Under the pieces are notes generated by a model. It was not told where the DNA came from. It made no database searches and saw only the letters and a program-made list of their open reading frames with translations. From the IMG/VR virus record IMGVR_UViG_3300015202_000006, positions 47-64,046 of that record: a stretch of DNA of 64,000 bases; one strand, 5' to 3'. Positions 8,842 to 60,192 of this stretch are shown piece by piece; position 1 is the stretch's first letter; the number at the start of each line of letters is the position of its first letter. A program made the translations under genes and the position numbers. The DNA is from a virus.

Positions 8842-9680
8842 TGAACGTTTTAAAGGTGGACTACACCGATCCCGAGGCGGCTCTTAAGCTCGATCAGTCT
8901 CTTCGTGAGACGGGTTTCGCTGTTTTGGTGAACCACCGGATCGATCCGGGCTTGCTTGCTGCGGCCTATGCCGATTGGGCAGTCTTCTTCGCTAGCGAGA
9001 AAAAATATCGATACACGTTTGATCCGAAGGATCAGAGTGGGTTCTTTCCTTTCAAGACCGAGCACGCCAAAGACTCTTCTATCAAGGACCTAAAGGAGTT
9101 CTTCCACATGTTTCCCGATACCGATCTTCCGGTCGGAATGAGCAATGCCACTAAGAAGCTTGCTAAAGCGCTTATGGGTCTTGGTGAAGAGATTTTGATC
9201 GCACTCGATAACGTTCTCCCTAAAAAGATTTCAGATAAGCTCGACGAGCCTTTAGTGTCCATGATTCAGAGGAGCGAGGGCACGCTCTTCCGGATCCTCC
9301 ATTACCCACCATTGAACGGTTCCGAAGAAACCGGTGCTGTAAGAGCGTTTGCTCACGAAGACATCAATCTCATCACCCTATTGCCAGCAGCCACCGCATC
9401 AGGCCTCCAGGTTCGGGATATGAACGGTAACTGGGTGGATGTGCCCGTCGATCCCGGAAGCATCGTTATCAATGCTGGAGACATGCTGAAGGAGGCCACA
9501 GACGGCTATTACCCGTCCACTACCCACCGAGTGATGAATCCGGTGGGTGAGGAAGCGATTTTGTCTCGTTACTCGATGCCGATGTTCATCCATCCTCGTC
9601 CGGGCGTCGTTCTCTCTGAACGATACACTGCCGGACAGTATTTAACCGAGCGCCTCGCTGAGATCGGACTACTTAAATGA
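8841..9680 (+). CDS. 2OG-Fe(II) dioxygenase, isopenicillin-N-synthase/DIOX family
   Basis: GFAVLVNH, RILHYPP, HED(HxD)INLITLL, GLQV, NAGDML, HRV, RYS motifs. Confidence 0.9.
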   Translation: MNVLKVDYTDPEAALKLDQSLRETGFAVLVNHRIDPGLLAAAYADWAVFFASEKKYRYTFDPKDQSGFFPFKTEHAKDSSIKDLKEFFHMFPDTDLPVGMSNATKKLAKALMGLGEEILIALDNVLPKKISDKLDEPLVSMIQRSEGTLFRILHYPPLNGSEETGAVRAFAHEDINLITLLPAATASGLQVRDMNGNWVDVPVDPGSIVINAGDMLKEATDGYYPSTTHRVMNPVGEEAILSRYSMPMFIHPRPGVVLSERYTAGQYLTERLAEIGLLK

Positions 9681-10357
9681 GTTCTGGAGAAGATATGGAA
9701 AACCCAAAAGACCTCAGCGCACAGTACGTCGATTCGATGGGATCCGATTTAACGCCTGTGAACGCGGCGAGAATCTCCTTTAATAACTCCTCAGAAGAGC
9801 TGACCGAGAAAGACAAGAAGCTCATCAACTATCTGGCCAAGCACCAGCACATGTCTGTTTTTGAACATTGTTCTCTTACGGTGATTGTCCATTGTCCTCT
9901 CTACATCCGGTCTCAGTGGCATCGCCACCGCACGATGTCCTACAATGAGGTGTCTCGCCGCTACACCGCAGACGATGTCGAGTTCTATGTTCCGCCAGTT
10001 GATGACATCCGGTTACAGAGCAAATCCAATAAGCAGGGGAGTGAAGGCCCGATGGACCCGGCCCAGGCTGAACTCGCTCAGGCAGCAATGGTTGAGATCT
10101 CAATGAAGGCCAATGAAGTGTTCGAAAAGCTCATTGCTCTTGGTGTCGCACGCGAACAGGCCCGGGCCATCCTCCCTCAAAACGTCATGACGAAGTTCTA
10201 CGCCACCGCAAACCTTCGTAACTGGGCCGCGTTCCTTAAGCTTCGTCTGGACCCGCATGCGCAGAAGGAGATTCGGGTTCTTGCCGAGCAGGTGTCCGAG
10301 ATCATCAAAGAACGCTGGCCAGTGAGTTACAAGGCTCTTGTGGAAAGCGATGAATGA
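9677..10357 (+). CDS. thyX: Flavin-dependent thymidylate synthase
   Basis: HMSVFEH, QWHRHR, NEVSRRY, ARAILP, NLRNW, LRLDPHAQKEIR. Confidence 0.95.
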   Translation: MSSGEDMENPKDLSAQYVDSMGSDLTPVNAARISFNNSSEELTEKDKKLINYLAKHQHMSVFEHCSLTVIVHCPLYIRSQWHRHRTMSYNEVSRRYTADDVEFYVPPVDDIRLQSKSNKQGSEGPMDPAQAELAQAAMVEISMKANEVFEKLIALGVAREQARAILPQNVMTKFYATANLRNWAAFLKLRLDPHAQKEIRVLAEQVSEIIKERWPVSYKALVESDE

Positions 10358-39164: not shown

Positions 39165-39371
39165 ATGGCTAAACAGTTAAAAGTACAAAAAAGCGAAGAG
39201 GGAACACCAGTGGTGCAATGCCCTCGATGCGACGAAGTAATCACTCCGAACTATTTTGAGATATTCGATGGGTACCACTGCCCCGAATGTGACCAAACAT
39301 TAGACAGCGGGGCACTTCGAGCTTACCGACGAGCGGCTAAGGACTTCGAAGACTCGGGCGGCATGGAATGA
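39165..39371 (+). CDS. Zinc-ribbon protein (68 aa)
   Basis: CPRC...CPEC. Confidence 0.7.
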   Translation: MAKQLKVQKSEEGTPVVQCPRCDEVITPNYFEIFDGYHCPECDQTLDSGALRAYRRAAKDFEDSGGME

Positions 39372-39952
39372 GACTCCACCGCGATTCTATCGATCGATTC
39401 TTCGAATACGATTTTCATCTCGAGACCCGAACAATTTTCATCTCGGATCATGAGGACGGAACTGGCGTAGGCCCATTAATGGCCGAAAAGGTCATTAAAG
39501 CCCTTCATCTTTTCGTTGCGGCCAATCCCTCCGAAGAAGCCACCATCAAAATTATCATGAACTCGAAAGGTGGCTCTTGGGATGACGGCATGGCCATTTT
39601 CGATGCCATTATCGCTTGTCCTTGCCACGTAATAATCGAGTCCTACGGCAGCTGCATGTCTATGGCCACGGTTATCCTGCAGGCTGCCGACGAGCGGATC
39701 CTTCATCCGAATTCGACTTTTATGGTTCATGATGGAAGCGATTATTTCGAAGGGGAGTCTAAGAACTTCGAAGCCTGGGGCAAGCACTCTCACTACATCC
39801 GTGGGCGCATGTACGAGATCTACTCTGAGGCGAGTGAAAAAGACGAGACGTTTTGGCGAAAGAAGTGCGCGACCGACTTCATCGTCACTGCAAAAGAAGC
39901 CGTTGAACTCGGGTTGGCCGACAGAGTTGCGGGCGAAGGAAAAGATGAATAA
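39368..39952 (+). CDS. ClpP-like protease
   Basis: MNSKGG, CMSMA (Ser), FMVHDG (His), TDFIVTAKEAVELGLADRV. Confidence 0.88.
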   Translation: MRLHRDSIDRFFEYDFHLETRTIFISDHEDGTGVGPLMAEKVIKALHLFVAANPSEEATIKIIMNSKGGSWDDGMAIFDAIIACPCHVIIESYGSCMSMATVILQAADERILHPNSTFMVHDGSDYFEGESKNFEAWGKHSHYIRGRMYEIYSEASEKDETFWRKKCATDFIVTAKEAVELGLADRVAGEGKDE

Positions 39953-44993: not shown

Positions 44994-45728
44994 ATGAGTC
45001 TTAGGAAAAGCACTGTCATCGAATGTGTCGCGTCCACTTCGGACCGGGACATCACGAATGAGGTTTTAGATCTCGACGGTGCGGATATTTCGCCACTGCT
45101 GGAAGGCCGTGGTTTCGTCAATGCGGATCATAGACAGGGATTTGATTCCCTTCTTGGTCGGGTGATGGAAGCGAAAAAGATCACCAAGATGGAAGACTGT
45201 ACTACTCCGACCCAGATTAAATACTGGCAAGAGTTACAGAGGCCCTTCTTGTGGACCAAAGCAGAACTCTGGGACGGTGTAGGACATAAGGAAGCTGATT
45301 CTGTCGCTTCTATTTATAAGTTCTACAGCGCCAAGAATGAAGCTCCTCCTATTAAAGTCTCTGTCGAAGGCAAGACCATACAACGTGGCCCCGACGGAAA
45401 ACTTAGTAAGACCCAGATTCGTGGCATTGCCTTAACAATTGCACCCTGCAATCGCAATACGCGAACCGAAGTCACTGCGATTAATAAATCAGTAGGCGCA
45501 GACGACTCTCTCATCAAGTCAGAAGATTACGAAGTTCCGTTCTTTCGAGAACAGAGCGTCGAACCACTACAGAAAATTTATCAGCTTGCGGTGACCGCTC
45601 GCGAGCTGCTGCGAGAGGCAAGGATTTCCTTGTCGAAAGCAGATTCTGGAATCGTGCTCCTAAAAAGCCCGGTTCTTTTAGAGCGGCTGAAACTAATGAT
45701 CTCTGACTACAAAAAGTCAGATTTATAA
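44994..45728 (+). CDS. Prohead (capsid maturation) protease
   Basis: CVASTSDRD..NE, VNADH (His), KVSVEG (Ser), IALTIAPCN; upstream of scaffold and capsid. Confidence 0.88.
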   Translation: MSLRKSTVIECVASTSDRDITNEVLDLDGADISPLLEGRGFVNADHRQGFDSLLGRVMEAKKITKMEDCTTPTQIKYWQELQRPFLWTKAELWDGVGHKEADSVASIYKFYSAKNEAPPIKVSVEGKTIQRGPDGKLSKTQIRGIALTIAPCNRNTRTEVTAINKSVGADDSLIKSEDYEVPFFREQSVEPLQKIYQLAVTARELLREARISLSKADSGIVLLKSPVLLERLKLMISDYKKSDL

Positions 45729-46222: not shown

Positions 46223-46960
46223 ATGGAAAAAATCGAAGCAACACAAACTCAGAGCAAAGAAGAATTGCTTAAGGCCGTTGCCGACGTTCTAGAAGAGGCG
46301 CTCGCTGAGTACGAAGCGCTTTCCAAAGCTGACCTCTATATGGGAGAGCCCGAAGAAGGCGCTCCTATCGCTGAATCTAAAGACGAAGAGTCTGAAGAGA
46401 GCGAAGAGGAAAAAGAGAAGAAGAAGAAAAAGAAAGACGAAGATGAATCTGAAGACGAAGAGTCTGAAGAAGCGTTGAAGTCTGAATTCGCAGCGATCTC
46501 CGCTAAAATGGCAGCTCGCGGTCTTCTTAATAAATCTCAAGAGACTAAGTCCGAAACAATCGCAGCTAAAGTTGAAGCTCACAAAGCTGAAACCGCGACG
46601 ATTCAGAAGTCTGAAGCCGCTCCGGTTGCTCCAGCTGAAGACAAGACAGAGTCCCTTAAGAAAGCTTTCGATGAACGTTTCGACAGCGTGAGCAAAGCAA
46701 TCGCTGCTTTATCGGAAACCGTCAACAAGATCGCGGCCCAACCCGCTTCACCTCGCAAGGGTGTTGCAGGCTACGCGCCTTCTCTCCGCAAGTCGGAAGA
46801 GGGTTCGGAACAGCCGCTTAAAAAGTCTGTGGTCCTTGAAGTGCTTCTGAAAGCGAAGCGCGAAGGGAACCGTGGGGTTGATTCAACCCTTATTAACCGA
46901 ATCGAGACCAACAGGGCGACCCCTGCTGATCTTCAATTTGTCAAAGGATTGCTGGGTTAA
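46223..46960 (+). CDS. Capsid scaffold-like protein
   Basis: Acidic/charged helical protein directly before the capsid gene; many LxKS/LxKA motifs. Confidence 0.7.
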   Translation: MEKIEATQTQSKEELLKAVADVLEEALAEYEALSKADLYMGEPEEGAPIAESKDEESEESEEEKEKKKKKKDEDESEDEESEEALKSEFAAISAKMAARGLLNKSQETKSETIAAKVEAHKAETATIQKSEAAPVAPAEDKTESLKKAFDERFDSVSKAIAALSETVNKIAAQPASPRKGVAGYAPSLRKSEEGSEQPLKKSVVLEVLLKAKREGNRGVDSTLINRIETNRATPADLQFVKGLLG

Positions 46961-46991: not shown

Positions 46992-48494
46992 ATGTTTCAA
47001 AATGATCCAATTATGAATGCTCAGAGCGGCGAACTTAGTACGGCCTCTCTCGACATGAACCAAGCCGAAGCGCTCGCGAAGACGCTTCAAGTTGGTCACG
47101 CGTACGCGAGTGGTTCGCCAACGTCGTTGACCGGTGCCGGCGCTCTCCAAATGGAAAGCATCGACGCGACCCTTAAGTCGGTACTGTACGAAGCTAAAAA
47201 TCTCGTCCTCTATCCATCCCTTCCTCAGGATAAGGCCTATAGCCTGGTCGAACAATTTGTTCGTACCAATTCCGTAGGAGATGGCGGATCCGTTTTCGTT
47301 AGCGAAAGCGCAAGCCCTGTCATGAACGACAGCGAGTTCCAACGGGCCGCTTCGAAAGTAGTTTTCTTCGCGACTCGTCGCGGAGTGAGCTTGCCAGCGA
47401 CTCTCGTCCGAATGAACTTCGGCGGAGATCTCGAAGGCAAAGAAGCTGCTGCCGGAAGTCTCTGGATGCTCGAACGCGTCGAACGCGCTTGCTACAAGGC
47501 AATGAGCGATTACACGAACGACGGACACTTTGATGGCGCACTTGCTGCCATTCCAGGCGTCATTCAGAATCTCGAACTCGATGGTCTCGAAAGACAGATC
47601 CGCTCGGCGGATGCTGATTTCAGCCAACAAGTTCGTGCTTTCGACGGATACGGCGGCGCTCAAAGCGTTGTTAAGGATCTCGCGGGCAATGTCATCGACG
47701 AAACTTCGATCGAAGACGAAGCTGAAGTCATCATGGAAAACTTCGGCATGCCGCAAGAACTCCATTTGGCTCCTAAGCAGCTCTCTGATTTCGTGAAACA
47801 GTTTCTTCCTAAAGAACGCGTCATGCAACTCGGGATTCAAGATGCTCGTGCCGGCTACGTCGTGCGCACGTTCGCCACTTCCGCTGGAGACATCGGACTT
47901 AAGGCCAACATCTTCCTGAAGCCAAAAGAGAATCCGAAGTCCCAAAACGATCGCGCTAACGTACCAAACGCTCCGGCGTCTGTTACGCCAGCTACGTCGA
48001 CTCCTTCTGATACGGCCTCGAAGCTTAAGGCTGGCGACAAGTATTCGTACTCTGTTGCTGCCTGCTCCGAAGCTGGCGAGTCTGCCTCTATCGCTGCTAC
48101 CTCGGCTGATACCGTGATTGCTGTCGACGGAGATATCGTGACTCTCGCGATTGCTGCTCCTAGCTCTGGTGTTCGCGCTACGCACTTTGCTGTGTATCGT
48201 ACGAGCAAAGCTGGCGGAACTGCTGCCCCGAAGAAATTCATTGGGTATGTTAAGACCGCTGGAACGTCTACCGTGTTCAAAGATCGCGGCGAACGTACTG
48301 AAGGTTCGGCTACCGCGTTCATGCTCGATCTTCGCCCGGAGATTCTGGTTTGGAAGCAACTCGCCCCAATGATGAAGATCGCTCTTGCTCAGGTTTCCCT
48401 CAGCAAAGAGTTCATCCTGTGGATGGCTGCTACCCTGCAAGTGTTCAACGGACGCAAGCTCGGTGTGATCCAAAACATCGGCCGCTCCACCTAA
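46992..48494 (+). CDS. Major capsid protein (500 aa)
   Basis: ALAKTLQVG...GAGALQMESID N-terminus like SPO1/Twort-type capsids; strong SD, codon bias, followed by a terminator. Confidence 0.88.
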   Translation: MFQNDPIMNAQSGELSTASLDMNQAEALAKTLQVGHAYASGSPTSLTGAGALQMESIDATLKSVLYEAKNLVLYPSLPQDKAYSLVEQFVRTNSVGDGGSVFVSESASPVMNDSEFQRAASKVVFFATRRGVSLPATLVRMNFGGDLEGKEAAAGSLWMLERVERACYKAMSDYTNDGHFDGALAAIPGVIQNLELDGLERQIRSADADFSQQVRAFDGYGGAQSVVKDLAGNVIDETSIEDEAEVIMENFGMPQELHLAPKQLSDFVKQFLPKERVMQLGIQDARAGYVVRTFATSAGDIGLKANIFLKPKENPKSQNDRANVPNAPASVTPATSTPSDTASKLKAGDKYSYSVAACSEAGESASIAATSADTVIAVDGDIVTLAIAAPSSGVRATHFAVYRTSKAGGTAAPKKFIGYVKTAGTSTVFKDRGERTEGSATAFMLDLRPEILVWKQLAPMMKIALAQVSLSKEFILWMAATLQVFNGRKLGVIQNIGRST

Positions 48495-53699: not shown

Positions 53700-53709
53700 T
53701 CCGTATAAA
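53700..53709 (+). promoter_or_regulatory. Phage promoter motif TCCGTATAAA
   Basis: Exact copy; 6 nt to ATG at 53716. Confidence 0.85.
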
Positions 53710-53715
53710 ACAAGC

Positions 53716-55797
53716 ATGAGGATTCTGTCAGTTGTAGCGCGGAATTTCCGGTCCTACGAAACAATCGACTGGAGCATTCCCAGTACCGGCCTGTTTTTAA
53801 TCGATGGCGAAAACCTGGAAACAGGTCGCTCGAATATGGTGGGCAAGACCACCCTTTGCGATTCGATTTTCTGGTGCCTTTACGGATACCTTCCGAAATG
53901 GGGAGGTCCTAAGGGCGGACCGGTAGACGCTGTTATCAAACGCGGCCAAAAGAGTTGCAGAGTTGAGGTCATCGTCGAGCATGCTGGACGTTCGTACCGG
54001 ATCGAGAGGTCAAGACCGGGAGGGCTAAAAATCTGGACTCCGGGAATTCACTCTCAAGAATCGCTCGATTCGTTTCAGGCCTTTGAGCATGGGGTTTGTG
54101 CCACGAATCAATTGCACGGCAAGACTTCCGATCTAGATGACCGCATTCCTGAATTAATCGGGATGGATGACAAGCAGTTTCTGCTGGCCGTCTATATCTC
54201 CCAAGATCGAAACAAATCTTTCTTCTCAATGGGAGACGCCGAACGCGCCGCCCACCTCTCAATCATCGCGGGTCTTGAATCTCTCAATCTGGCGCTCGAG
54301 CGGGTTAAAGAGGAGAAGAAGGCGATCGAATCTGAACTGGAAAGAGCCAATGGGTCACTCAAAGTTCTTCATGAACAATCAGTTAGTCTTCATACCGAGC
54401 GGGACGAGCTTGTATCTCGAACAGCAATCCTTTTTGAGGCAGTTGCTAAAGAGTCCGGCGATTTTATCGATCTTAAAGGAAGACTCGATCAAGACGAACG
54501 AGACGACCGGACCGAGCACGACAGCGTCGTCAGGGGTGCTCAAGAAAACCTCTCGGAAAGCCTCAAGATCTTAAACAACGAGTACACGGATCTTATGGGT
54601 CAAAAGATGACTCTCCAGGCCGGCCTCTCGCAACGGCCCAAGATCGATGCGGCAACCTCCCAGCTGCTTTCTGAACTCACTGCCGAAGTAGACGCGGTTC
54701 AGTCTTCAAATTTCGTCAGGGAAAAGGTTGTTCGTGAAAACGCTCGCATCCAGGACTCTCTGGACCGCGAGATCCGAGCCGTTGAAAACCTGCAAAAGGG
54801 CGCAAGCTGCGGCACCTGCAAGCAGCCCTTACCTTCAGAGGGTATCGATAGCGAGATTGAGTCTCATCTGAGACGTGCCGACTCATTGTCAGCGCAACTC
54901 AAGGAAGTGTTGGAGGAGCGAGACCTGGCCGCCATCATGAAGCGCCAGCGTGAGGCGTCCGAAGTCTATCACAGGACGGAGGCAGAGCTTAATGCCAGAC
55001 CCAATGAGATCCGTGGCGAAATTCGTCTGATCGAACAAACGGCACTCATCGTAAAGCAGAAGGCTTCGACACTCGACAGCCAGTCTAAAGCCGAGATTGA
55101 GAAAGCAGGCCGTGTTCTTAGGGACTCCAAACGAAGGAACGACGATGCCCTTCGTGTCCTCGAGAATCAGATTAGGCTCAAGCAGACGCAGCTTGAAGCA
55201 GCAGAAAACAGCCTTAGTTCCTTCGATAAGCGGGCCGCAAAGATTCATGCCGATGCGGGGGCAAATAAGATCAGGGTTAGAGATTTGCTAGTGGAAATCG
55301 ATGAACTCATGGACCTCATTGATCTATTCGGACCGAAAGGCATCCGTCAGATCTATTTCGATGGTTTGATTGAACGCATCGGTTCGCGTGCGGGACAGCT
55401 CTTCAGTCTCATGACGGATGGGATTTATTCGACTCGGATCGACCAGCTTGGAGAAACCGCTAAGGGCGAACAGCGGCTCATCCTGAAGCCGGTCATCACT
55501 AAGGGCGGGCTTGAGGTTCCTGAAGACGATCTGTCGGGAGGGGCCCGCCGAATGGCCATGCTTGCCTACGATGTGGCGGTTTCTGAAGCGATTGGCGAGT
55601 GCAACGTATTCTTCCTCGATGAGGCTCTCGACGGGCTGGATGCCCAGGGTAAGGCCGAGGCGGTCAGGCTTTTAGAAGAAGTGGCCAGGACCCGCGCAGT
55701 TTTCATGATTGACCACACCTCGGAAATTAAATCGTCCGTCCAGGCGATCATCAAGGTCACCTATAAAAACGAAACCTCCCAGATTGAGCGCGGGTAG
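53716..55797 (+). CDS. SbcC/Rad50/gp46-like ATPase subunit
   Basis: RNFRSY, NMVGKTT (Walker A), CGTCKQP zinc hook, LSGG signature, FFLDE, IDH. Confidence 0.93.
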   Translation: MRILSVVARNFRSYETIDWSIPSTGLFLIDGENLETGRSNMVGKTTLCDSIFWCLYGYLPKWGGPKGGPVDAVIKRGQKSCRVEVIVEHAGRSYRIERSRPGGLKIWTPGIHSQESLDSFQAFEHGVCATNQLHGKTSDLDDRIPELIGMDDKQFLLAVYISQDRNKSFFSMGDAERAAHLSIIAGLESLNLALERVKEEKKAIESELERANGSLKVLHEQSVSLHTERDELVSRTAILFEAVAKESGDFIDLKGRLDQDERDDRTEHDSVVRGAQENLSESLKILNNEYTDLMGQKMTLQAGLSQRPKIDAATSQLLSELTAEVDAVQSSNFVREKVVRENARIQDSLDREIRAVENLQKGASCGTCKQPLPSEGIDSEIESHLRRADSLSAQLKEVLEERDLAAIMKRQREASEVYHRTEAELNARPNEIRGEIRLIEQTALIVKQKASTLDSQSKAEIEKAGRVLRDSKRRNDDALRVLENQIRLKQTQLEAAENSLSSFDKRAAKIHADAGANKIRVRDLLVEIDELMDLIDLFGPKGIRQIYFDGLIERIGSRAGQLFSLMTDGIYSTRIDQLGETAKGEQRLILKPVITKGGLEVPEDDLSGGARRMAMLAYDVAVSEAIGECNVFFLDEALDGLDAQGKAEAVRLLEEVARTRAVFMIDHTSEIKSSVQAIIKVTYKNETSQIERG

Positions 55798-55804
55798 GGC
55801 GCTT

Positions 55805-55814
55805 TCCGTATAAA
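55805..55814 (+). promoter_or_regulatory. Phage promoter motif TCCGTATAAA
   Basis: Exact copy; 6 nt to GTG at 55821. Confidence 0.8.
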
Positions 55815-55820
55815 CCCTAG

Positions 55821-55994
55821 GTGAAGCTCAAACTCGTTTTCTTTACCTTTTTTGCGGTGTATTTCGGTTTGTATCTCATACCGACGCTCATTGCGGCCGT
55901 GGCAATTTCAGCCAGGCTGACCGCTCTGTCTACGGGTTCAATCGGACAATATGAGAATGATTCCTCAGTCCGATCCGGGCCTTCTGCTCATTGA
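55821..55994 (+). CDS. Small membrane protein (57 aa)
   Basis: Hand translation MKLKLVFFTFFAVYFGLYLIPTLIAAVAISARL...; below the ORF track cutoff. Confidence 0.5.
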   Translation: MKLKLVFFTFFAVYFGLYLIPTLIAAVAISARLTALSTGSIGQYENDSSVRSGPSAH

Positions 55995-57813
55995 TCAACT
56001 CGTGATGTTGGCCTCTAGTCTTAAAGAAGAAGATCTTGAGGATCCGGAGACGTTTGCTCTATGCTCTCAGCTTGTCCAAATTCTAGACCCAAAGCCCGAG
56101 CCAATGCCTCAGGATGTAGTCGATCAGTTAAGCCAAATTCAAAACACCGCCGATCGTTTCCGTCAGGCCGTCCAACTCTTTGGAGTGATGGACACTCCAG
56201 GCATGCAAAAACTCCTGGAGTCTATGAAGTCTGCAGGTCTTATGAAAGCCGAAACACTTTTAAAGATGCCATTTGTTAGCCAACATAATTCTGATGTCGC
56301 TCAACGGATTGGCCCGCTGGTTCCTAAAGGAAAGCTTATTGGGACCTACAAAGTAGGTAGCCACACAGTATTTCATCACCAAGAAGAAAGCGGCGAATCT
56401 AATCATTTTACTATTCACCCTAAAAACGACTCCGGTGCAAGACCGATAGCAGGGCTTTTTACAAACTCCTTTTACGACCATGGGGCAGACGAAGGCCTCC
56501 ATGGCCTTCAATACTCCGAACATATTGCAGTCGAACCTAGGCATCACGGAAAAGGGATGGGGGCCGCACTCGTAATTGCGGCCACAAAACACTTCGGAAC
56601 ACTGCTAAGTGGAAACACACTCTCTCCAGGCAGTGACGGCCTTTTTAGAGAAATTGGTAAAAAGCATAAGCAAATTCGCGTCGAAGTTGGAACTGGAGAC
56701 GATGCTCCTCATGTAGCCACTTGGACAAAACAAAAAAAGAACTCAAAATCTCAAGACGTTAATAAGTCCGAAGTCCTCATGAAGATGCCAATGATCCGGA
56801 ACAACAAGTTCCCGGATCATCAGGAGCGGTTGAAGGGCGCCAGCAACGGCATGCAGTACGAAGGATCCGAGACGTTCGGTCGTCACACCATCCATAAGTA
56901 TTCAAACCCGATCCTCGGACAACACGCTTACACGATTAATGAGGGCGGGCACGAATCAGGCGAGCACGTCTCTGCAGTGATTGTTCATCACAACAAAGAA
57001 TCCTTTGCTGGCGCACATCATTCCATCGAGTTTGCGGCCACTAAGACCAGTCATTCCGGAAGAGGCCATTCCACCGCCCTCCATGCCTTTGCAACAACAA
57101 AGCATCAGAAGGTATCCTCTGCCGAGATCCTGACCGATTCGGGTGACAAGGTTTACAAGAAACTTTCTCAGCTCCCTCATTTTGAGGTGAAGCGCCACGT
57201 TCACGGGGCCAATCGGCCCGCATCGAGCCCTTCTTCCGTTAAGGGAACTAGACATGTGGTCATCAGCAATAAGGTCGCTGAGCATTTTGATAAAGTTAAA
57301 CAAAACTGGGCCGGAAAATTCTTTAAAAAGTCTGAGACCGATGCCGACCATCTTGTCCATTATTCCGTTCATGCAAATGAGCTGAACACGATCGATCCTA
57401 GCTTTCATGGTACAGGCGCTGTCGGCCACGAAAGCCGTAGGACAAACCGGATACCCCGCTCCTATTTTTATGAGCACGGAACTCAGCCCGAAGATGCGGT
57501 TACAGCCCAGTCAAAGCGAGTTTACAAGGTTAAGCGTCCGGAGAAGGTATTAGATATCGCGAGCGAAGAAGCTCGTCCGGTCTATCATGCGGCCTTCGGT
57601 GAGGCTGACCGCACTAAAATTGATCGTCGTTCCATGGACGCCAGTCGTCTTGAATTCGAAATCAAGAAGCAGGGCTTTCACGGCTACAAGAACTCCGAAG
57701 GGCCTCTTCCTAATGTGGTCGCTCTATTTCATTCGACCCCAGTCGAATCGAGCGAGCCGGTAGATCATGAGCATTTCGCAAAAATTCGGGATCTTGCCAG
57801 GAAGGCAAAGTAG
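55951..57813 (+). CDS. Multidomain (polyvalent-like) protein: two GNAT-like modules plus an ART-like module
   Basis: IAVEPRHHGKGMGAAL and AATKTSHSGRGHSTAL (acetyl-CoA motif A-like); LVHYS...GTG...SYFY...VYKV...GFHGY; modules preceded by KAE/KSE. Confidence 0.6.
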   Translation: MRMIPQSDPGLLLIDQLVMLASSLKEEDLEDPETFALCSQLVQILDPKPEPMPQDVVDQLSQIQNTADRFRQAVQLFGVMDTPGMQKLLESMKSAGLMKAETLLKMPFVSQHNSDVAQRIGPLVPKGKLIGTYKVGSHTVFHHQEESGESNHFTIHPKNDSGARPIAGLFTNSFYDHGADEGLHGLQYSEHIAVEPRHHGKGMGAALVIAATKHFGTLLSGNTLSPGSDGLFREIGKKHKQIRVEVGTGDDAPHVATWTKQKKNSKSQDVNKSEVLMKMPMIRNNKFPDHQERLKGASNGMQYEGSETFGRHTIHKYSNPILGQHAYTINEGGHESGEHVSAVIVHHNKESFAGAHHSIEFAATKTSHSGRGHSTALHAFATTKHQKVSSAEILTDSGDKVYKKLSQLPHFEVKRHVHGANRPASSPSSVKGTRHVVISNKVAEHFDKVKQNWAGKFFKKSETDADHLVHYSVHANELNTIDPSFHGTGAVGHESRRTNRIPRSYFYEHGTQPEDAVTAQSKRVYKVKRPEKVLDIASEEARPVYHAAFGEADRTKIDRRSMDASRLEFEIKKQGFHGYKNSEGPLPNVVALFHSTPVESSEPVDHEHFAKIRDLARKAK

Positions 57814-57815
57814 TC

Positions 57816-59723
57816 ATGAAGGATCCAACTTTCTCTGCGATTTTAGCGAAAGCGCAAACCGTAATTGCAGGGCTTGAAACCCTTCATCTTAACTTTGAGG
57901 CGACTACACTCAAGAAGGCCGTCGACGATTTTGATTTCGATGCGGTTGATAAAGAGGTCAAAAGCGCTAGACGGAAGAACCTATCCTCTCATCCAGAAAA
58001 AGAGACTGATTCGGTCACTCCTGAAGCCAAAGACATACTGAACGACAAGGGCTTTCCGGAAGACAAGAAGAACACTCTCGACGAAAGTGCCAAGAAAGTC
58101 GTGGCGGACTTCAAGAACAGTGTTGGTGCCAAGAATCCATCCGCAGCATACGCCACTGGCAATGAAGAGAATCCTGCCAAGGCGGTCCCTCATGCGATCA
58201 GCTCCTACGGTAATCACTGGCAGTTTGCCAGGAAGCTGGGTCATGGAACGGGCGAGGACTTCAAGGACTCCGGTCTTGTCGCAGTCAATACTCACAAATA
58301 CGGCAGCGATACCGAACAGCTCGGTTCGCGCGTTCATCGCGAACTCCATAACGAATACGGACAAGAGAACTTAATCCGGGTCAATCACCCGGACTACATC
58401 AAGTCGGCCAAGATCATTCATGGCGGAACTGATGCCATTCACGCCCACTTGCTAGACGCTCGAGATAATCATCCTGATCTTAACTCGCGCGCGCAGGCAC
58501 ACGAGGATCTCGAGAAGCTGCAGCGTAGGGGACTCATTAAGCCCGGCTCGTTTCCGAGTACCCAAGAGAGTAAAGGCGATTCGCGTTTCGGAATGGATGC
58601 TGAGGCCAATAAGGCCAAGCGTCTTGACGGATACAGTCGTTTCGCAAGCCAATTAGGCCTCGAAATTAAGACCGATCAGGCGGGCCGAAAATCCATGGGA
58701 TCCATGGGTCCGAACGTCATCAATCCTACGACCGGCGGCAAGAAGGAAGAAGGCCCGATTGAACAGCAGGTTGTTCACGATATGGGCCATGGCATTTCTA
58801 ATACGAACGTCGGCAATACCCTTGCTGAGACCCAGGACATTATCGGTAAGCCCGGCACGCACTTCTTCATGGACGATCCGACCAAATCGAAGAAGCGCCG
58901 TCTCGAAGGCTCGATGGAACAGACCGAAAAGTTTACGAAACAGTTTAAGAACCTGCCACAGCCTGCTCCCGGGTACAGCCGTAACGAGGCCGGCAAAAAG
59001 GTCATCACTAAGAATCCGGCCAAGGGCCGCATCTCAAACGAGGTCACCTCGCAGTATTCCGAGGCTACGATCGCAAGACGTTCTGGTAACGAAGTGTTCC
59101 GGGTTAAGCCTCATCTTCCGGCCCGTACGGAAACGAAGGCAGGCACCCTGCGCCCTCCGTCCGCTCAAGAGCGGGCCCTTCATGTCGGTCGCAACATGGT
59201 TGAGCTTGCTCATTCAGGAATTGCCGACTTTAAATCTCCCGACAAGTCGCTCACCGTTCACAATAATCCAAACTCCCTAATCAACATGCGCGCTCTTGGC
59301 GCACCGAAGATGGCTCTTAAAGAGGCCTACAATCGTTACAAGAAGGGTCTTATTAAAGCCGAGATCATGATCCGGGTCCTTGAGAACGCCGGCTACCTCG
59401 ATGAGGTCGCCCCGCTTAGGAAGTCGATCGATCGTATGCGGGAGAATCTAGAGGTGCTCGAGAAGGGCTGGTCCAGTAGCAAGAAGTACGGGATCAAGAC
59501 AGATTGGAACACCCACACTCCGGAAGATCAAAAGAGCGCTCACCACAAGGCGATGGAGGCTGCTGTTCGTGCGGTCGAAGAGAAGATTAAGCCGGTGAAT
59601 CAGGGTCCGAAACCCAAGAAAAAGAAACAAACGATCTGTCCCAAGACAGGTGTCGTAACCGACGTTGAATCGCCAGCCGATAAGACGTCTGAAACGAAGG
59701 GAAACGAAGATGCGAACGATTGA
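57816..59723 (+). CDS. Large hypothetical protein, probable internal virion protein with a zincin-like HDMGH motif
   Basis: ORF track; LKKA, LIKAE, LRKS motifs; QVVHDMGH. Confidence 0.55.
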   Translation: MKDPTFSAILAKAQTVIAGLETLHLNFEATTLKKAVDDFDFDAVDKEVKSARRKNLSSHPEKETDSVTPEAKDILNDKGFPEDKKNTLDESAKKVVADFKNSVGAKNPSAAYATGNEENPAKAVPHAISSYGNHWQFARKLGHGTGEDFKDSGLVAVNTHKYGSDTEQLGSRVHRELHNEYGQENLIRVNHPDYIKSAKIIHGGTDAIHAHLLDARDNHPDLNSRAQAHEDLEKLQRRGLIKPGSFPSTQESKGDSRFGMDAEANKAKRLDGYSRFASQLGLEIKTDQAGRKSMGSMGPNVINPTTGGKKEEGPIEQQVVHDMGHGISNTNVGNTLAETQDIIGKPGTHFFMDDPTKSKKRRLEGSMEQTEKFTKQFKNLPQPAPGYSRNEAGKKVITKNPAKGRISNEVTSQYSEATIARRSGNEVFRVKPHLPARTETKAGTLRPPSAQERALHVGRNMVELAHSGIADFKSPDKSLTVHNNPNSLINMRALGAPKMALKEAYNRYKKGLIKAEIMIRVLENAGYLDEVAPLRKSIDRMRENLEVLEKGWSSSKKYGIKTDWNTHTPEDQKSAHHKAMEAAVRAVEEKIKPVNQGPKPKKKKQTICPKTGVVTDVESPADKTSETKGNEDAND

Positions 59724-60192
59724 TCCGAGCGCTAATGCCTCACAGCACTTTACTTTCAAAGAGTTGCTTTGGCTGCCCTCATGGGGCCGTCTTGCAAACG
59801 AGTCTGATGGTCTCACGGACGAGACTCTCGACCGTCTTGTATTCATGGCCCAGAAACTCGATGTCGTTCGCGAGTTTTTCGGTAAGCCAATCAACATCCA
59901 TGTCTGGTACCGCCCACACGCTTACAACGCGCTTATAGGTGGCAAAGACAATAGCGCCCACATGGCCACTCAAAACGCCCATGGTGTGCCTCTGACGGCC
60001 GTGCAGATGGAAGCGGCAGTGGATTTTGATGTAGAGGGAATGTCTTGTGACGACGCTCGCCAGATGATCCTAGACGCCGGAAAACTGCCCGAGTGGGGTC
60101 TTCGTATGGAGAACAACGGGCCTGGCTCCCCATGGATCCATTTGGACTGCCGCGCGCCCGTCATTCAAGATCATTGGTATTTTAACCCCTAA
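59710..60192 (+). CDS. Peptidase M15 family zinc peptidase (candidate endolysin)
   Basis: HFTFKEL, LDVVREFFGKPI...WYR...YNALIGG...SAHM...AVDF...WIHLD. Confidence 0.85.
   Translation: MRTIDPSANASQHFTFKELLWLPSWGRLANESDGLTDETLDRLVFMAQKLDVVREFFGKPINIHVWYRPHAYNALIGGKDNSAHMATQNAHGVPLTAVQMEAAVDFDVEGMSCDDARQMILDAGKLPEWGLRMENNGPGSPWIHLDCRAPVIQDHWYFNP

Follow-up and report, generated by a model that had tools for sequence, protein, structure and literature searches.

A probably cut-apart multi-enzyme protein of the polyvalent kind, with GNAT-like and ART-fold modules, in an uncultured large phage

An open reading frame at positions 55951-57813 (+) of a 64-kb stretch of DNA (the window) encodes a 620-aa protein of an uncultured large phage, and the question that it raises is what this chain is made of and whether its parts are separated and carried into the host. 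The presence of TerL, portal, and major capsid protein genes identifies the window as phage. Searches with the whole protein against Pfam, PHROGs, NCBIfam, and PDB sequences returned almost nothing, and a word-index search for homologues retrieved only the protein itself, as it did for the next ORF. Likewise, tblastn with the leader domain, module 1, and the next ORF against 50,697 phage records gave no match and thus no cultured relative, and an AF2 model of all 620 aa from the single sequence was unusable (pLDDT 35). HMMER against 1.84 billion representatives retrieved 295 proteins at E <=1e-3 that match single modules, mostly within large multi-domain proteins. The chain is made up of four parts, namely an acidic N-terminal leader, two GNAT-like modules, and a C-terminal ART-fold module, which are laid out with their junctions as follows:

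55951..56253, + strand: leader domain (aa 1-101), acidic, helical, and conserved, pI 4.3, ending in AGLMKAE
56236..56253, + strand: junction motif 1, GLMKAE (aa 96-101)
56254..56772, + strand: module 1, GNAT-like acetyltransferase domain (aa 102-274), from Pfam, family alignment A2, and PDB profile matches
56539-56571, + strand: motif A of module 1, RHHGKGMGAAL (aa 197-207)
56755..56772, + strand: junction motif 2, DVNKSE (aa 269-274)
56773..57336, + strand: module 2, diverged duplicate of module 1 (aa 275-462), from BLASTP and alignment A2
57049-57081, + strand: motif-A-like string of module 2, SHSGRGHSTAL (aa 367-377)
57319..57336, + strand: junction motif 3, FFKKSE (aa 457-462), where the model of module 3 is of low confidence (disordered)
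57337..57813, + strand: module 3, ART-superfamily fold domain (aa 463-620 and the stop codon), from the AF2 model and structural matches

The initial annotation of this DNA had described three modules, each behind a similar linker. The modular layout is borne out, with K-[SA]-E linkers at all three borders (GLMKAE, DVNKSE, and FFKKSE), and the three modules claimed are real, but a fourth, the conserved N-terminal domain of aa 1-101, had been overlooked, as had the continuation of the module series in the next ORF. A zincin domain, which had been named as part of the polyvalent-protein repertoire, is absent from the 620-aa protein. That this arrangement goes beyond chance follows from the alignment of module 1 with module 2 (BLASTP E 3e-5, 23% identity across 143 aa), from the 295 single-module homologues, and from the occurrence of three [LFMIV]x[KQ][SAT]E sites in 620 aa, which has P ~0.003 at the window's non-head rate for a motif chosen post hoc.

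Judged by sequence, modules 1 and 2 are diverged duplicates belonging to one GNAT-like family. Module 1 matches Pfam Acetyltransf_7 (E 6.8e-4) with 20.4 bits, under the gathering score of 27, and module 2 alone has no Pfam match. Module 2 aligns within the GNAT-like family alignment A2, in which 11 of 14 family segments match GNAT Pfam families (best E 3e-6), and the matches of the A2 profile in PDB are nearly all GNATs (best E 1.7e-6). These Pfam and PDB matches support the earlier reading of both modules as GNAT-like, and the acetyl-CoA motif-A-like strings reported for them are found at the positions given above, the GNAT motif A being R/Q-x-x-G-x-G/A.

The pattern of H, G.G, YF, and GFHGY that had been noticed in the third module is real, and it comprises the most conserved columns among 71 aligned homologues; here it reads LVHYS (468-472), GTG (487-489), SYFYE (504-508), and GFHGY (575-579). 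Y507, E514, G575, and G578 are invariant in this alignment, and H470, S472, D535, and N581 are at least 90% conserved. Structure prediction from the 71 sequences (AF2, pLDDT 90.4, pTM 0.84), followed by structure search, yielded the fold that the initial annotation had anticipated: on the model, module 3 adopts the split beta-sheet fold of the ART superfamily. Strand 1 of the model bears H470 and strand 2 bears Y507, and these two, together with an acidic residue that would be either D535 or E514, are the candidate catalytic residues. Essentially all structural matches listed (MbcT/RES, ParT, NatT, diphtheria toxin, AcrIF11, Arr, PARPs, and pertussis S1) are ART-fold proteins, at modest Z values of up to 7.5. 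MbcT, a RES NAD+ phosphorylase (PDB 6fkg), superimposes across 133 residues (Z 7.5, rmsd 4.3) and AcrIF11, an ART anti-CRISPR (PDB 6kyf), across 112 residues (Z 4.8, rmsd 4.0). What module 3 shares with both is the minimal ART-superfamily fold, at an identity of ~8-14% and without an HMM-level relationship and, unlike either, it is embedded in a multi-module chain. Searched against BFVD, module 3 matched phage proteins that are ART-PolyVal-like or annotated as 'large polyvalent protein associated' (best 6.6e-8). No Pfam model matched module 3 or its 71 family members; ART-PolyVal (PF18760) in particular was unmatched by the query at E <=10 and by every member at E <=0.01, and the relationship between module 3 and ART-PolyVal is, according to the model, one of fold level only. 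Among PDB sequences, the module-3 profile matched only CCT-zeta, weakly (E 0.007), which was taken as chance. The structural match to the pre-ejectosome chain 9k3a_B of cyanophage A4 was set aside as evidence for a module-3-like domain in a solved ejectosome, being too scattered (chain residues 464-1622, rmsd 5.6). The paper on the A4 pre-ejectosome makes no mention of a module-3-like domain.

Together, these domain identities and the membership of the protein among phage polyvalent proteins, which the initial annotation had proposed, can be stated with high confidence. The modules recur in multi-domain phage proteins, some of more than 2,000 aa, and are shared combinatorially: in homologues as long as 2353 aa, single modules stand beside NUDIX, SAM-lyase, PI3/4-kinase, mCpol, or ART-PolyVal domains. 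At least two distinct effector-type domains in one polypeptide of a phage or conjugative element are expected of a polyvalent protein, and this one has two GNAT-like modules and an ART-fold module; packaging in the capsid and entry with the DNA are predictions for the family. Proteins of this kind, combining GNAT and ART, are known: according to Iyer et al. (2017; PMC5512222), an H-Y-D ART is, among the domains of polyvalent proteins that modify proteins, the one found most often, and one GNAT family typically neighbours the polyvalent ART. As in the proteins treated there, several effector-type domains share one phage polypeptide, a GNAT neighbours the ART, and the ART has a strand-1 His, a strand-2 Tyr, and a conserved acidic residue. 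In contrast to the proteins described there, the present one lacks an embedded metallopeptidase, MuF, portal, or assemblin domain, and it has a conserved leader domain and K-[SA]-E junctions.

The leader domain was found in 32 other proteins of 90-1668 aa and is N-terminal in all of them, and homology among these proteins breaks off at GLL-K-[SA]-E. A quarter of the representatives (8 of 32) are stand-alone proteins of 90-103 aa, which argues that the domain has a role of its own and is more than a disposable tag; it is a candidate leader, pro-domain, or delivery domain. No match to it was found in Pfam or PHROG, and an Atlas search gave no usable match. Neither the leader domain nor the K-[SA]-E junction motif is mentioned in the passages of Iyer et al. 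(2017; PMC5512222) consulted, and both look undescribed so far. A conserved N-terminal domain with variable C-terminal effectors and stand-alone forms is also known from MuF-toxin polymorphic proteins but, unlike those, the leader is acidic, ~95 aa long, and without a MuF (PF04233) match or linkage to head genes.

Across the family, the junction motif can be written as [LFM]-x-K-[SA]-[ED]. In 149 homologues, KSE occurs 161 times versus 54 expected, K[SAT]E occurs 290 times versus 163 +/- 11.5 in shuffles, and L, F, or M is enriched 4-5 times two residues ahead of the motif K. Successive sites lie about one domain apart and have uniform contexts such as FGKSEL, and the motif lies 5-15 aa ahead of the first strand of module 3 across many unrelated architectures, among them short N-terminal leaders of 16-20 aa that end in KSE. 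One giant protein of a cyanopodophage bears a module-3-like domain but not the motif, which indicates that the motif is not inherent to the domain. In one relative (P0014), the junctions are K-S-D and the leader does not end in K-x-E. No DNA repeats longer than 17 nt were found at the junctions, and there is thus no sign of recombination cassettes.

The same motif marks head-assembly proteins of this phage, which are encoded elsewhere in the window:

44994..45728, + strand: candidate assemblin-fold (S78/S77-like) prohead protease, from phrog_1028 (E 1.5e-8) and Atlas
46223..46960, + strand: scaffold-like acidic protein with six K[SAT]E motifs
46992..48494, + strand: major capsid protein, from phrog_752 (E 1.3e-67)

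In Atlas, the protease candidate falls with Peptidase_S78 and S77 clusters (score 0.94-0.96, TM 0.5-0.6). Directly after its protease fold stands SLIKSE (aa 173-177), with the counterpart ALMKSE in the relative L007, which comes from a 113.7-kb Logan contig, the nearest long one, and the scaffold homologue of L007 has three K[SAT]E motifs, one of which (LRKSE) is at a matching position. The capsid protein is ~30% identical to SPO1-like capsid proteins; compared with that of L007, its N-terminus is variable ahead of QAE and conserved beyond, and from the sequences the capsid propeptide probably ends at MNQAE/ALAKTLQ (cut after E). Overall, the head module shows a 5.3-fold enrichment of [LFMIV]x[KQ][SAT]E (Fisher p 8e-4), a pattern chosen post hoc, and the sites, which cluster in the tails of the protease and the portal protein as well as in the scaffold and the capsid N-terminus, are conserved in position in L007.

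The gene itself sits outside the head module, between SbcC and a lysis-type hydrolase, in an apparent operon of three genes behind a phage promoter-like motif. The features around it, along with a second phage-encoded protease, are:

39368-39952: ClpP-like protease
55805..55814, + strand: TCCGTATAAA, phage promoter-like motif upstream of the operon
57816..59723, + strand: adjacent ORF of 635 aa with more polyvalent-protein modules and GLIKAE at aa 512-517
59665..60192, + strand: M15 peptidoglycan hydrolase (Peptidase_M15_3, Pfam E 6.2e-8), last gene of the apparent operon

The TCCGTATAAA motif occurs 28 times in the window versus 2.8 expected and also precedes replication genes. The adjacent ORF begins 2 nt past the stop codon of the 620-aa protein gene, and phmmer matched its product to P0023 (E 3.5e-44), P0116 (2.3e-27), and P0101, proteins that also bear module 3 or the N-terminal leader domain. 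In four related contigs, a peptidoglycan hydrolase gene likewise lies downstream of the polyvalent gene.

Since the junction motif also marks head-assembly proteins, the 620-aa protein is probably a multi-enzyme protein that is cut apart, of the polyvalent kind and serving host takeover or anti-defence. An alternative, which we regard as possible but unlikely, is that it is never packaged and acts in the cytoplasm, either uncut or after cleavage by another protease such as the ClpP-like one, K-[SA]-E serving just as a flexible linker or cap that is conserved and passed on along with the shuffled modules. The location of the gene away from head genes would suit this, as would the promoter motif that it has in common with replication genes, the stand-alone leader proteins, the K-S-D variants of P0014, and the very existence of a second protease. 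This alternative sits less well with the clustering of the motif at conserved positions in four head proteins, with the resemblance of the short leaders ending in KSE to capsid-targeting sequences, and with the podophage giant protein, in which a module-3-like domain is found without the motif.

A separate matter, which fits either delivery scenario, is the chemistry of module 3. Rather than a protein ART, it may be an enzyme that consumes NAD+ (an NADase, or an NAD+ phosphorylase like MbcT/RES) or one that modifies nucleic acids or small molecules (DarT/Tpt1/Arr-like), a reading that we hold to be the less probable one. The top structural match, MbcT (Foldseek probability 0.99), is an NAD+ phosphorylase and not a protein ART, RES clusters recur, and Arr, DarT, and Tpt1 are among the matches; furthermore, the spacing of H470, Y507, and D535 resembles that of Arr-type H-Y-D residues. 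Conversely, the RES signature (Arg-Glu-Ser) is not seen, as strand 1 has a conserved His in place of Arg and PF08808 is unmatched, and AcrIF11, which is a protein ART, also appears among the matches. Iyer et al. (PMC5512222) class H-Y-D polyvalent ARTs as protein-modifying by analogy with T4 Alt. It is improbable that the modules have lost catalysis and serve for binding or structure, in a protein that is itself structural or a decoy. The strong divergence of module 2 and its lack of a Pfam match would suit this, as would the sub-threshold score of module 1, but both GNAT-like modules retain the G-x-G of motif A, and module 3 retains every invariant or near-invariant residue of its family.

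The explanation that best accounts for the whole, and that we favor somewhat, is a polyvalent effector whose modules are cut by the prohead protease and delivered to the host. Cleavage at the junctions by that protease, for which the distribution of the motif is circumstantial support, is an evenly balanced proposition, and packaging of the protein in the capsid is slightly more doubtful. Under this explanation, disordered linkers bearing [LFM]-x-K-[SA]-E would join the modules, and the assemblin-type prohead protease would cut after the junction Glu, as it apparently does in the scaffold, its own C-terminal tail, and the capsid N-terminus. Such cleavage would take off the leader and release the acetylating and the ADP-ribosylating enzymes as separate proteins, which may enter together with the DNA or work in the cell at an early stage and, by analogy with T4 Alt, AcrIF11 (ART), and AcrVA5 (GNAT), could modify host or defence proteins. 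The arrangement is like that of the T4 internal proteins and Alt, whose capsid-targeting sequences are cut by gp21, in having a leader that terminates at Glu and, as in Alt, an ART as cargo, although packaging is inferred in the present case. As among the substrates of gp21, gp245, and gp175 in T4, SPN3US, and phiKZ, the motif is repeated in the scaffold and the protease C-terminal tail, and the gene of an assemblin-type protease adjoins scaffold and capsid genes. The T4 prohead-protease motif is L/I-x-E, compared with [LFM]-x-K-[SA]-E in this phage. That of SPN3US is A-x-E, and in T4-like and giant phages the prohead proteases cleave behind Glu and strip N-terminal propeptides of 20-254 aa from ejection proteins (PMC10052503). 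Unlike in the cargo of those phages, the sites here would also part several enzymes of one chain.

More tentatively, and with clear doubt, a lineage of uncultured ~150-kb phages might use a modular cargo code, in which a leader and protease-read junctions allow enzyme modules to be loaded, cut, and injected. The leader would be either the conserved acidic ~95-aa domain or a short sequence of 16-20 aa, and the modules strung on one chain would be arbitrary enzymes, such as GNAT, ART, NUDIX, kinase, SAM lyase, and mCpol. Polyvalent proteins are regarded as the chief phage vehicles for ready-made counter-defence enzymes, and the loading and separation of such long chains are explained mainly for cases with embedded peptidases. 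The family described here offers several handles, namely a junction motif that matches those of the phage's own head proteins, a conserved leader, and GNAT and ART modules, the enzyme classes of the known enzymatic anti-CRISPRs AcrVA5 and AcrIF11. If the cargo code holds, polyvalent proteins would gain a defined way of being processed without an embedded peptidase, and confirmation of the motif as a cleavage site would make the borders of modules and the mature effectors predictable from sequence in hundreds of metagenomic phage proteins.

The open reading frame at 55951-57813 (+) translates to a protein of 620 aa, which the initial annotation took to be a candidate capsid-packaged GNAT-GNAT-ART polyprotein cut by the prohead protease. 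The three linkers on which that proposal was built are present as quoted (GLMKAE at aa 96-101, DVNKSE at aa 269-274, FFKKSE at aa 457-462), as are the acetyl-CoA motif-A-like strings (aa 197-207 and 367-377) and the residue pattern of the third module (aa 468-472, 487-489, 504-508, and 575-579). HMMER comparison with 1.84 billion representatives yielded 295 proteins at E <=1e-3, including 127 at E <=1e-10; none was a full-length relative, and each of the 295 covers just one part of the protein. Re-scoring the best 149 of the 295 homologues by segment resolved four units:

aa 1-101, 32 proteins
aa ~100-270 (module 1), 12 proteins
aa ~270-460 (module 2), 5 proteins
aa ~460-615 (module 3), 114 proteins, many of them 1,000-2,350 aa long

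Module 3 had no match in the Pfam, NCBIfam, or PDB sequence libraries, and no support was found for its membership in Pfam PF18760. For this module, the structural check proposed with the initial annotation pointed to an ART fold. An AlphaFold2 model based on a 71-sequence alignment was confident (pLDDT 90.4, pTM 0.84), and nearly all of its matches in Foldseek and VIA-align were proteins of the ART superfamily. These included MbcT/RES (Z 7.5, 133 aligned residues, rmsd 4.3; Foldseek probability 0.99), ParT, NatT, diphtheria-toxin homologues, AcrIF11, Arr, PARPs, pertussis S1, DarT, and Tpt1. Among AFDB clusters the model matched RES, ART-PolyVal-like, DUF3990, and DarT. Its Atlas matches were clusters from viruses, of which some bear PF18760 or RES. 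The BFVD matches, with E down to 6.6e-8, comprised proteins named "large polyvalent protein associated domain", others that are ART-PolyVal-like, and a "structural protein" of a Flavobacterium podophage. H470 in strand 1, Y507 in strand 2, D535 (conserved at >=90%), and the invariant E514 make up a conserved set that fits an ART active site. In their account of polyvalent proteins, Iyer et al. (2017; PMC5512222) describe the H-Y-D ART, exactly of the kind seen in module 3, as the commonest protein-modifying domain and one that a GNAT family typically adjoins. The confident model, the structural matches, the conserved residues, and this description together support a predicted ART fold, for which protein ADP-ribosylation and NAD+ breakdown would both be candidate chemistries.

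Modules 1 and 2 can be aligned with one another over 143 aa (23% identity, E 3e-5), the leading K-x-E-x-L-x-K-M-P included, and so represent an old internal duplication. The GNAT models of Pfam match module 1 at sub-threshold scores only (Acetyltransf_7, E 6.8e-4, 20.4 bits vs 27). In a 14-segment alignment of the module 1/2 family, 11 segments match GNAT families (best 3e-6), and the profile of that alignment matches, among solved structures, almost exclusively GNAT acetyltransferases (best 1.7e-6). Both modules retain the G-x-G of motif A. We accept both as GNAT-like modules, with a catalytic competence that is putative, above all in module 2. The domain calls of the initial annotation hold, modules 1 and 2 being GNAT-like and module 3 having a predicted ART fold.

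That account did not include a fourth module, the conserved aa 1-101, which is acidic (pI 4.3) and predicted to be helical. It had no match in Pfam, PHROG, or the Atlas. In its 32 representatives, from proteins of 90-1668 aa, it is always N-terminal, and its conservation extends to SMK-x-AGLL-K-[SA]-E, where it ends abruptly. Eight representatives (90-103 aa) consist of this domain alone; one of them, P0029, is intact as a gene on a related contig, with a GP88-family gene 5 nt downstream. We interpret the domain as a leader, pro-domain, or delivery domain whose logic resembles that of MuF or of the long propeptides found on ejection proteins of giant phages. Its stand-alone forms show an independent role as well. 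On the related contig L002 (6001-7547) the leader forms its own 99-aa gene with AGLLKRE at the end, followed 5 nt on, in a different frame, by a GP88-family gene with a short leader (FRKAE) and the C-terminal junction-like motifs KLAASE and LKKAES.

The linker motif recurs across the family. KSE ranks third among the over-represented tripeptides of the 149 homologues (161 vs 54 expected; TPE, SPE, IDP, and GTG, also enriched, come from the conserved module-3 core). For K[SAT]E the count is 290 vs 163 +/- 11.5 in shuffles, and L, F, or M is enriched 4-5 times two residues before its K. Leader-bearing proteins have uniform site contexts (FGKSEL, MKKSEL, and similar), mostly spaced at the domain scale of 100-450 aa. 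In many different architectures the motif lies 5-15 residues ahead of module-3 strand 1, in a stretch that is disordered in the AlphaFold2 model, and several proteins open with a 16-20 aa leader ending in KSE with module 3 immediately after, recalling the T4 capsid-targeting sequence. The motif is not part of the module-3 domain itself, because a cyanopodophage giant protein has a module-3-like domain (tblastn E 4e-4) with no junction motif before it and no K[SAT][ED] enrichment. In P0014, the polyvalent protein of contig L007, the junctions are K-S-D and the leader lacks a K-x-E end. Many giant proteins (P0005, P0012, P0024, P0028, P0047, P0058, P0070, P0136, and the giant ORF of L001 at aa ~1400-1450) carry an extra conserved unit, with the signature G-x-x-F-x-x-N-F-D-F-D-K, immediately ahead of module 3; it is absent from the 620-aa protein.

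The IMG/VR virus record is linear, 64,064 bp, nearly all of it within the window, and 41% complete by CheckV, so the full genome is probably ~150 kb. The window encodes a class II RNR, GroEL, a PolIII-alpha-like polymerase, DnaB, and a major capsid protein ~30% identical to SPO1-like capsid proteins; around the 620-aa gene, no cultured phage matches at the DNA level. Other genes of the window include:

30684, TerL
34133, portal
39368-39952, ClpP-like protease of the head module (Pfam CLP_protease, E 8.6e-29; phrog_94)
44994-45728, candidate prohead protease just ahead of the genes for scaffold and capsid (phrog_1028, E 1.5e-8; leads in the Atlas pointing to clusters of S78 and S77)
46223-46960, scaffold-like protein, acidic, with a poly-K/E stretch

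The head module thus codes for two candidate maturation proteases, one ClpP-like and one S78/S77-like; the latter resembles prohead proteases of the HK97/T4 type with an assemblin fold. For the capsid gene, the start is probably ATG 46992 and not the listed GTG 46872.

K[SAT]E is rare in window proteins (26 in 18,501 aa), with six copies in the scaffold-like protein and three in the 620-aa protein. The wider [LFMIV]x[KQ][SAT]E, a motif defined post hoc, shows a 5.3-fold enrichment in proteins of the head module (11/4,425 aa vs 6/12,781 aa, Fisher p 8e-4) and tends toward termini (portal aa 620/676, ORF 36983 aa 214/225, capsid protein aa 22). SLIKSE lies immediately past the fold of the candidate prohead protease. 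A relative, the 113.7-kb contig L007, retains these three places, in the protease tail (ALMKSE), the scaffold (LRKSE), and the capsid-protein N-terminus, the last being variable between the two phages up to QQAE and conserved beyond. In T4-like and giant phages, the prohead proteases of this class are described as cleaving after Glu, stripping N-terminal propeptides of 20-254 aa off ejection proteins, and trimming their own C-terminal tail (PMC10052503). This circumstantial evidence fits the proposed prohead-protease cleavage, whereas the K-S-D junctions of P0014 and its leader end speak against it. We consider cleavage and capsid packaging of the 620-aa protein plausible, at about an even chance.

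A phage promoter-like motif, TCCGTATAAA, has 28 copies in the window (<=1 mismatch) vs 2.8 expected, for example at 53700, 55805, and 60515. Since copies stand ahead of both replication and structural genes, the motif is uninformative on expression timing. Around the copy at 55805, the 620-aa gene stands third in this order, with an M15 peptidoglycan hydrolase after the last entry:

53716-55797, SbcC-like ATPase
55821-55994, 57-aa strongly hydrophobic ORF with a GTG start 6 nt past the motif, overlapping the start of the 620-aa gene
55951-57813 (+), the 620-aa gene
57816-59723, 635-aa ORF, whose core is found again within polyvalent proteins bearing module 3 as well

The 57-aa product may be a small membrane protein, or a holin-like one, encoded first in an operon whose last gene is the M15 hydrolase. 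The 635-aa ORF had no match in Pfam, PHROG, or PDB. It shares modules with P0023, P0116, and P0101, homologues that bear module 3 or the leader, so that the two large ORFs resemble the pieces of a single polyvalent protein that has been split. It also has GLIKAE, in DNA nearly identical to that of the leader's GLMKAE (17 nt, 1 mismatch). In four related contigs a hydrolase (M15 or lysozyme) directly follows the leader-bearing polyvalent gene, which in two of the four lies downstream of an SbcC-like gene; in L007, tail-fibre-like genes follow. L007 also has a peptide deformylase (9459-9944) between its SbcC-like and polyvalent genes.

The 620-aa protein belongs to the known polyvalent-protein kind, in which the pairing of GNAT and ART is already described. 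Three features appear new: the conserved N-terminal leader, an ART-fold family that no Pfam model covers, and the K-[SA]-E junction motif, which runs through the whole family and is echoed in the proteins of head assembly.
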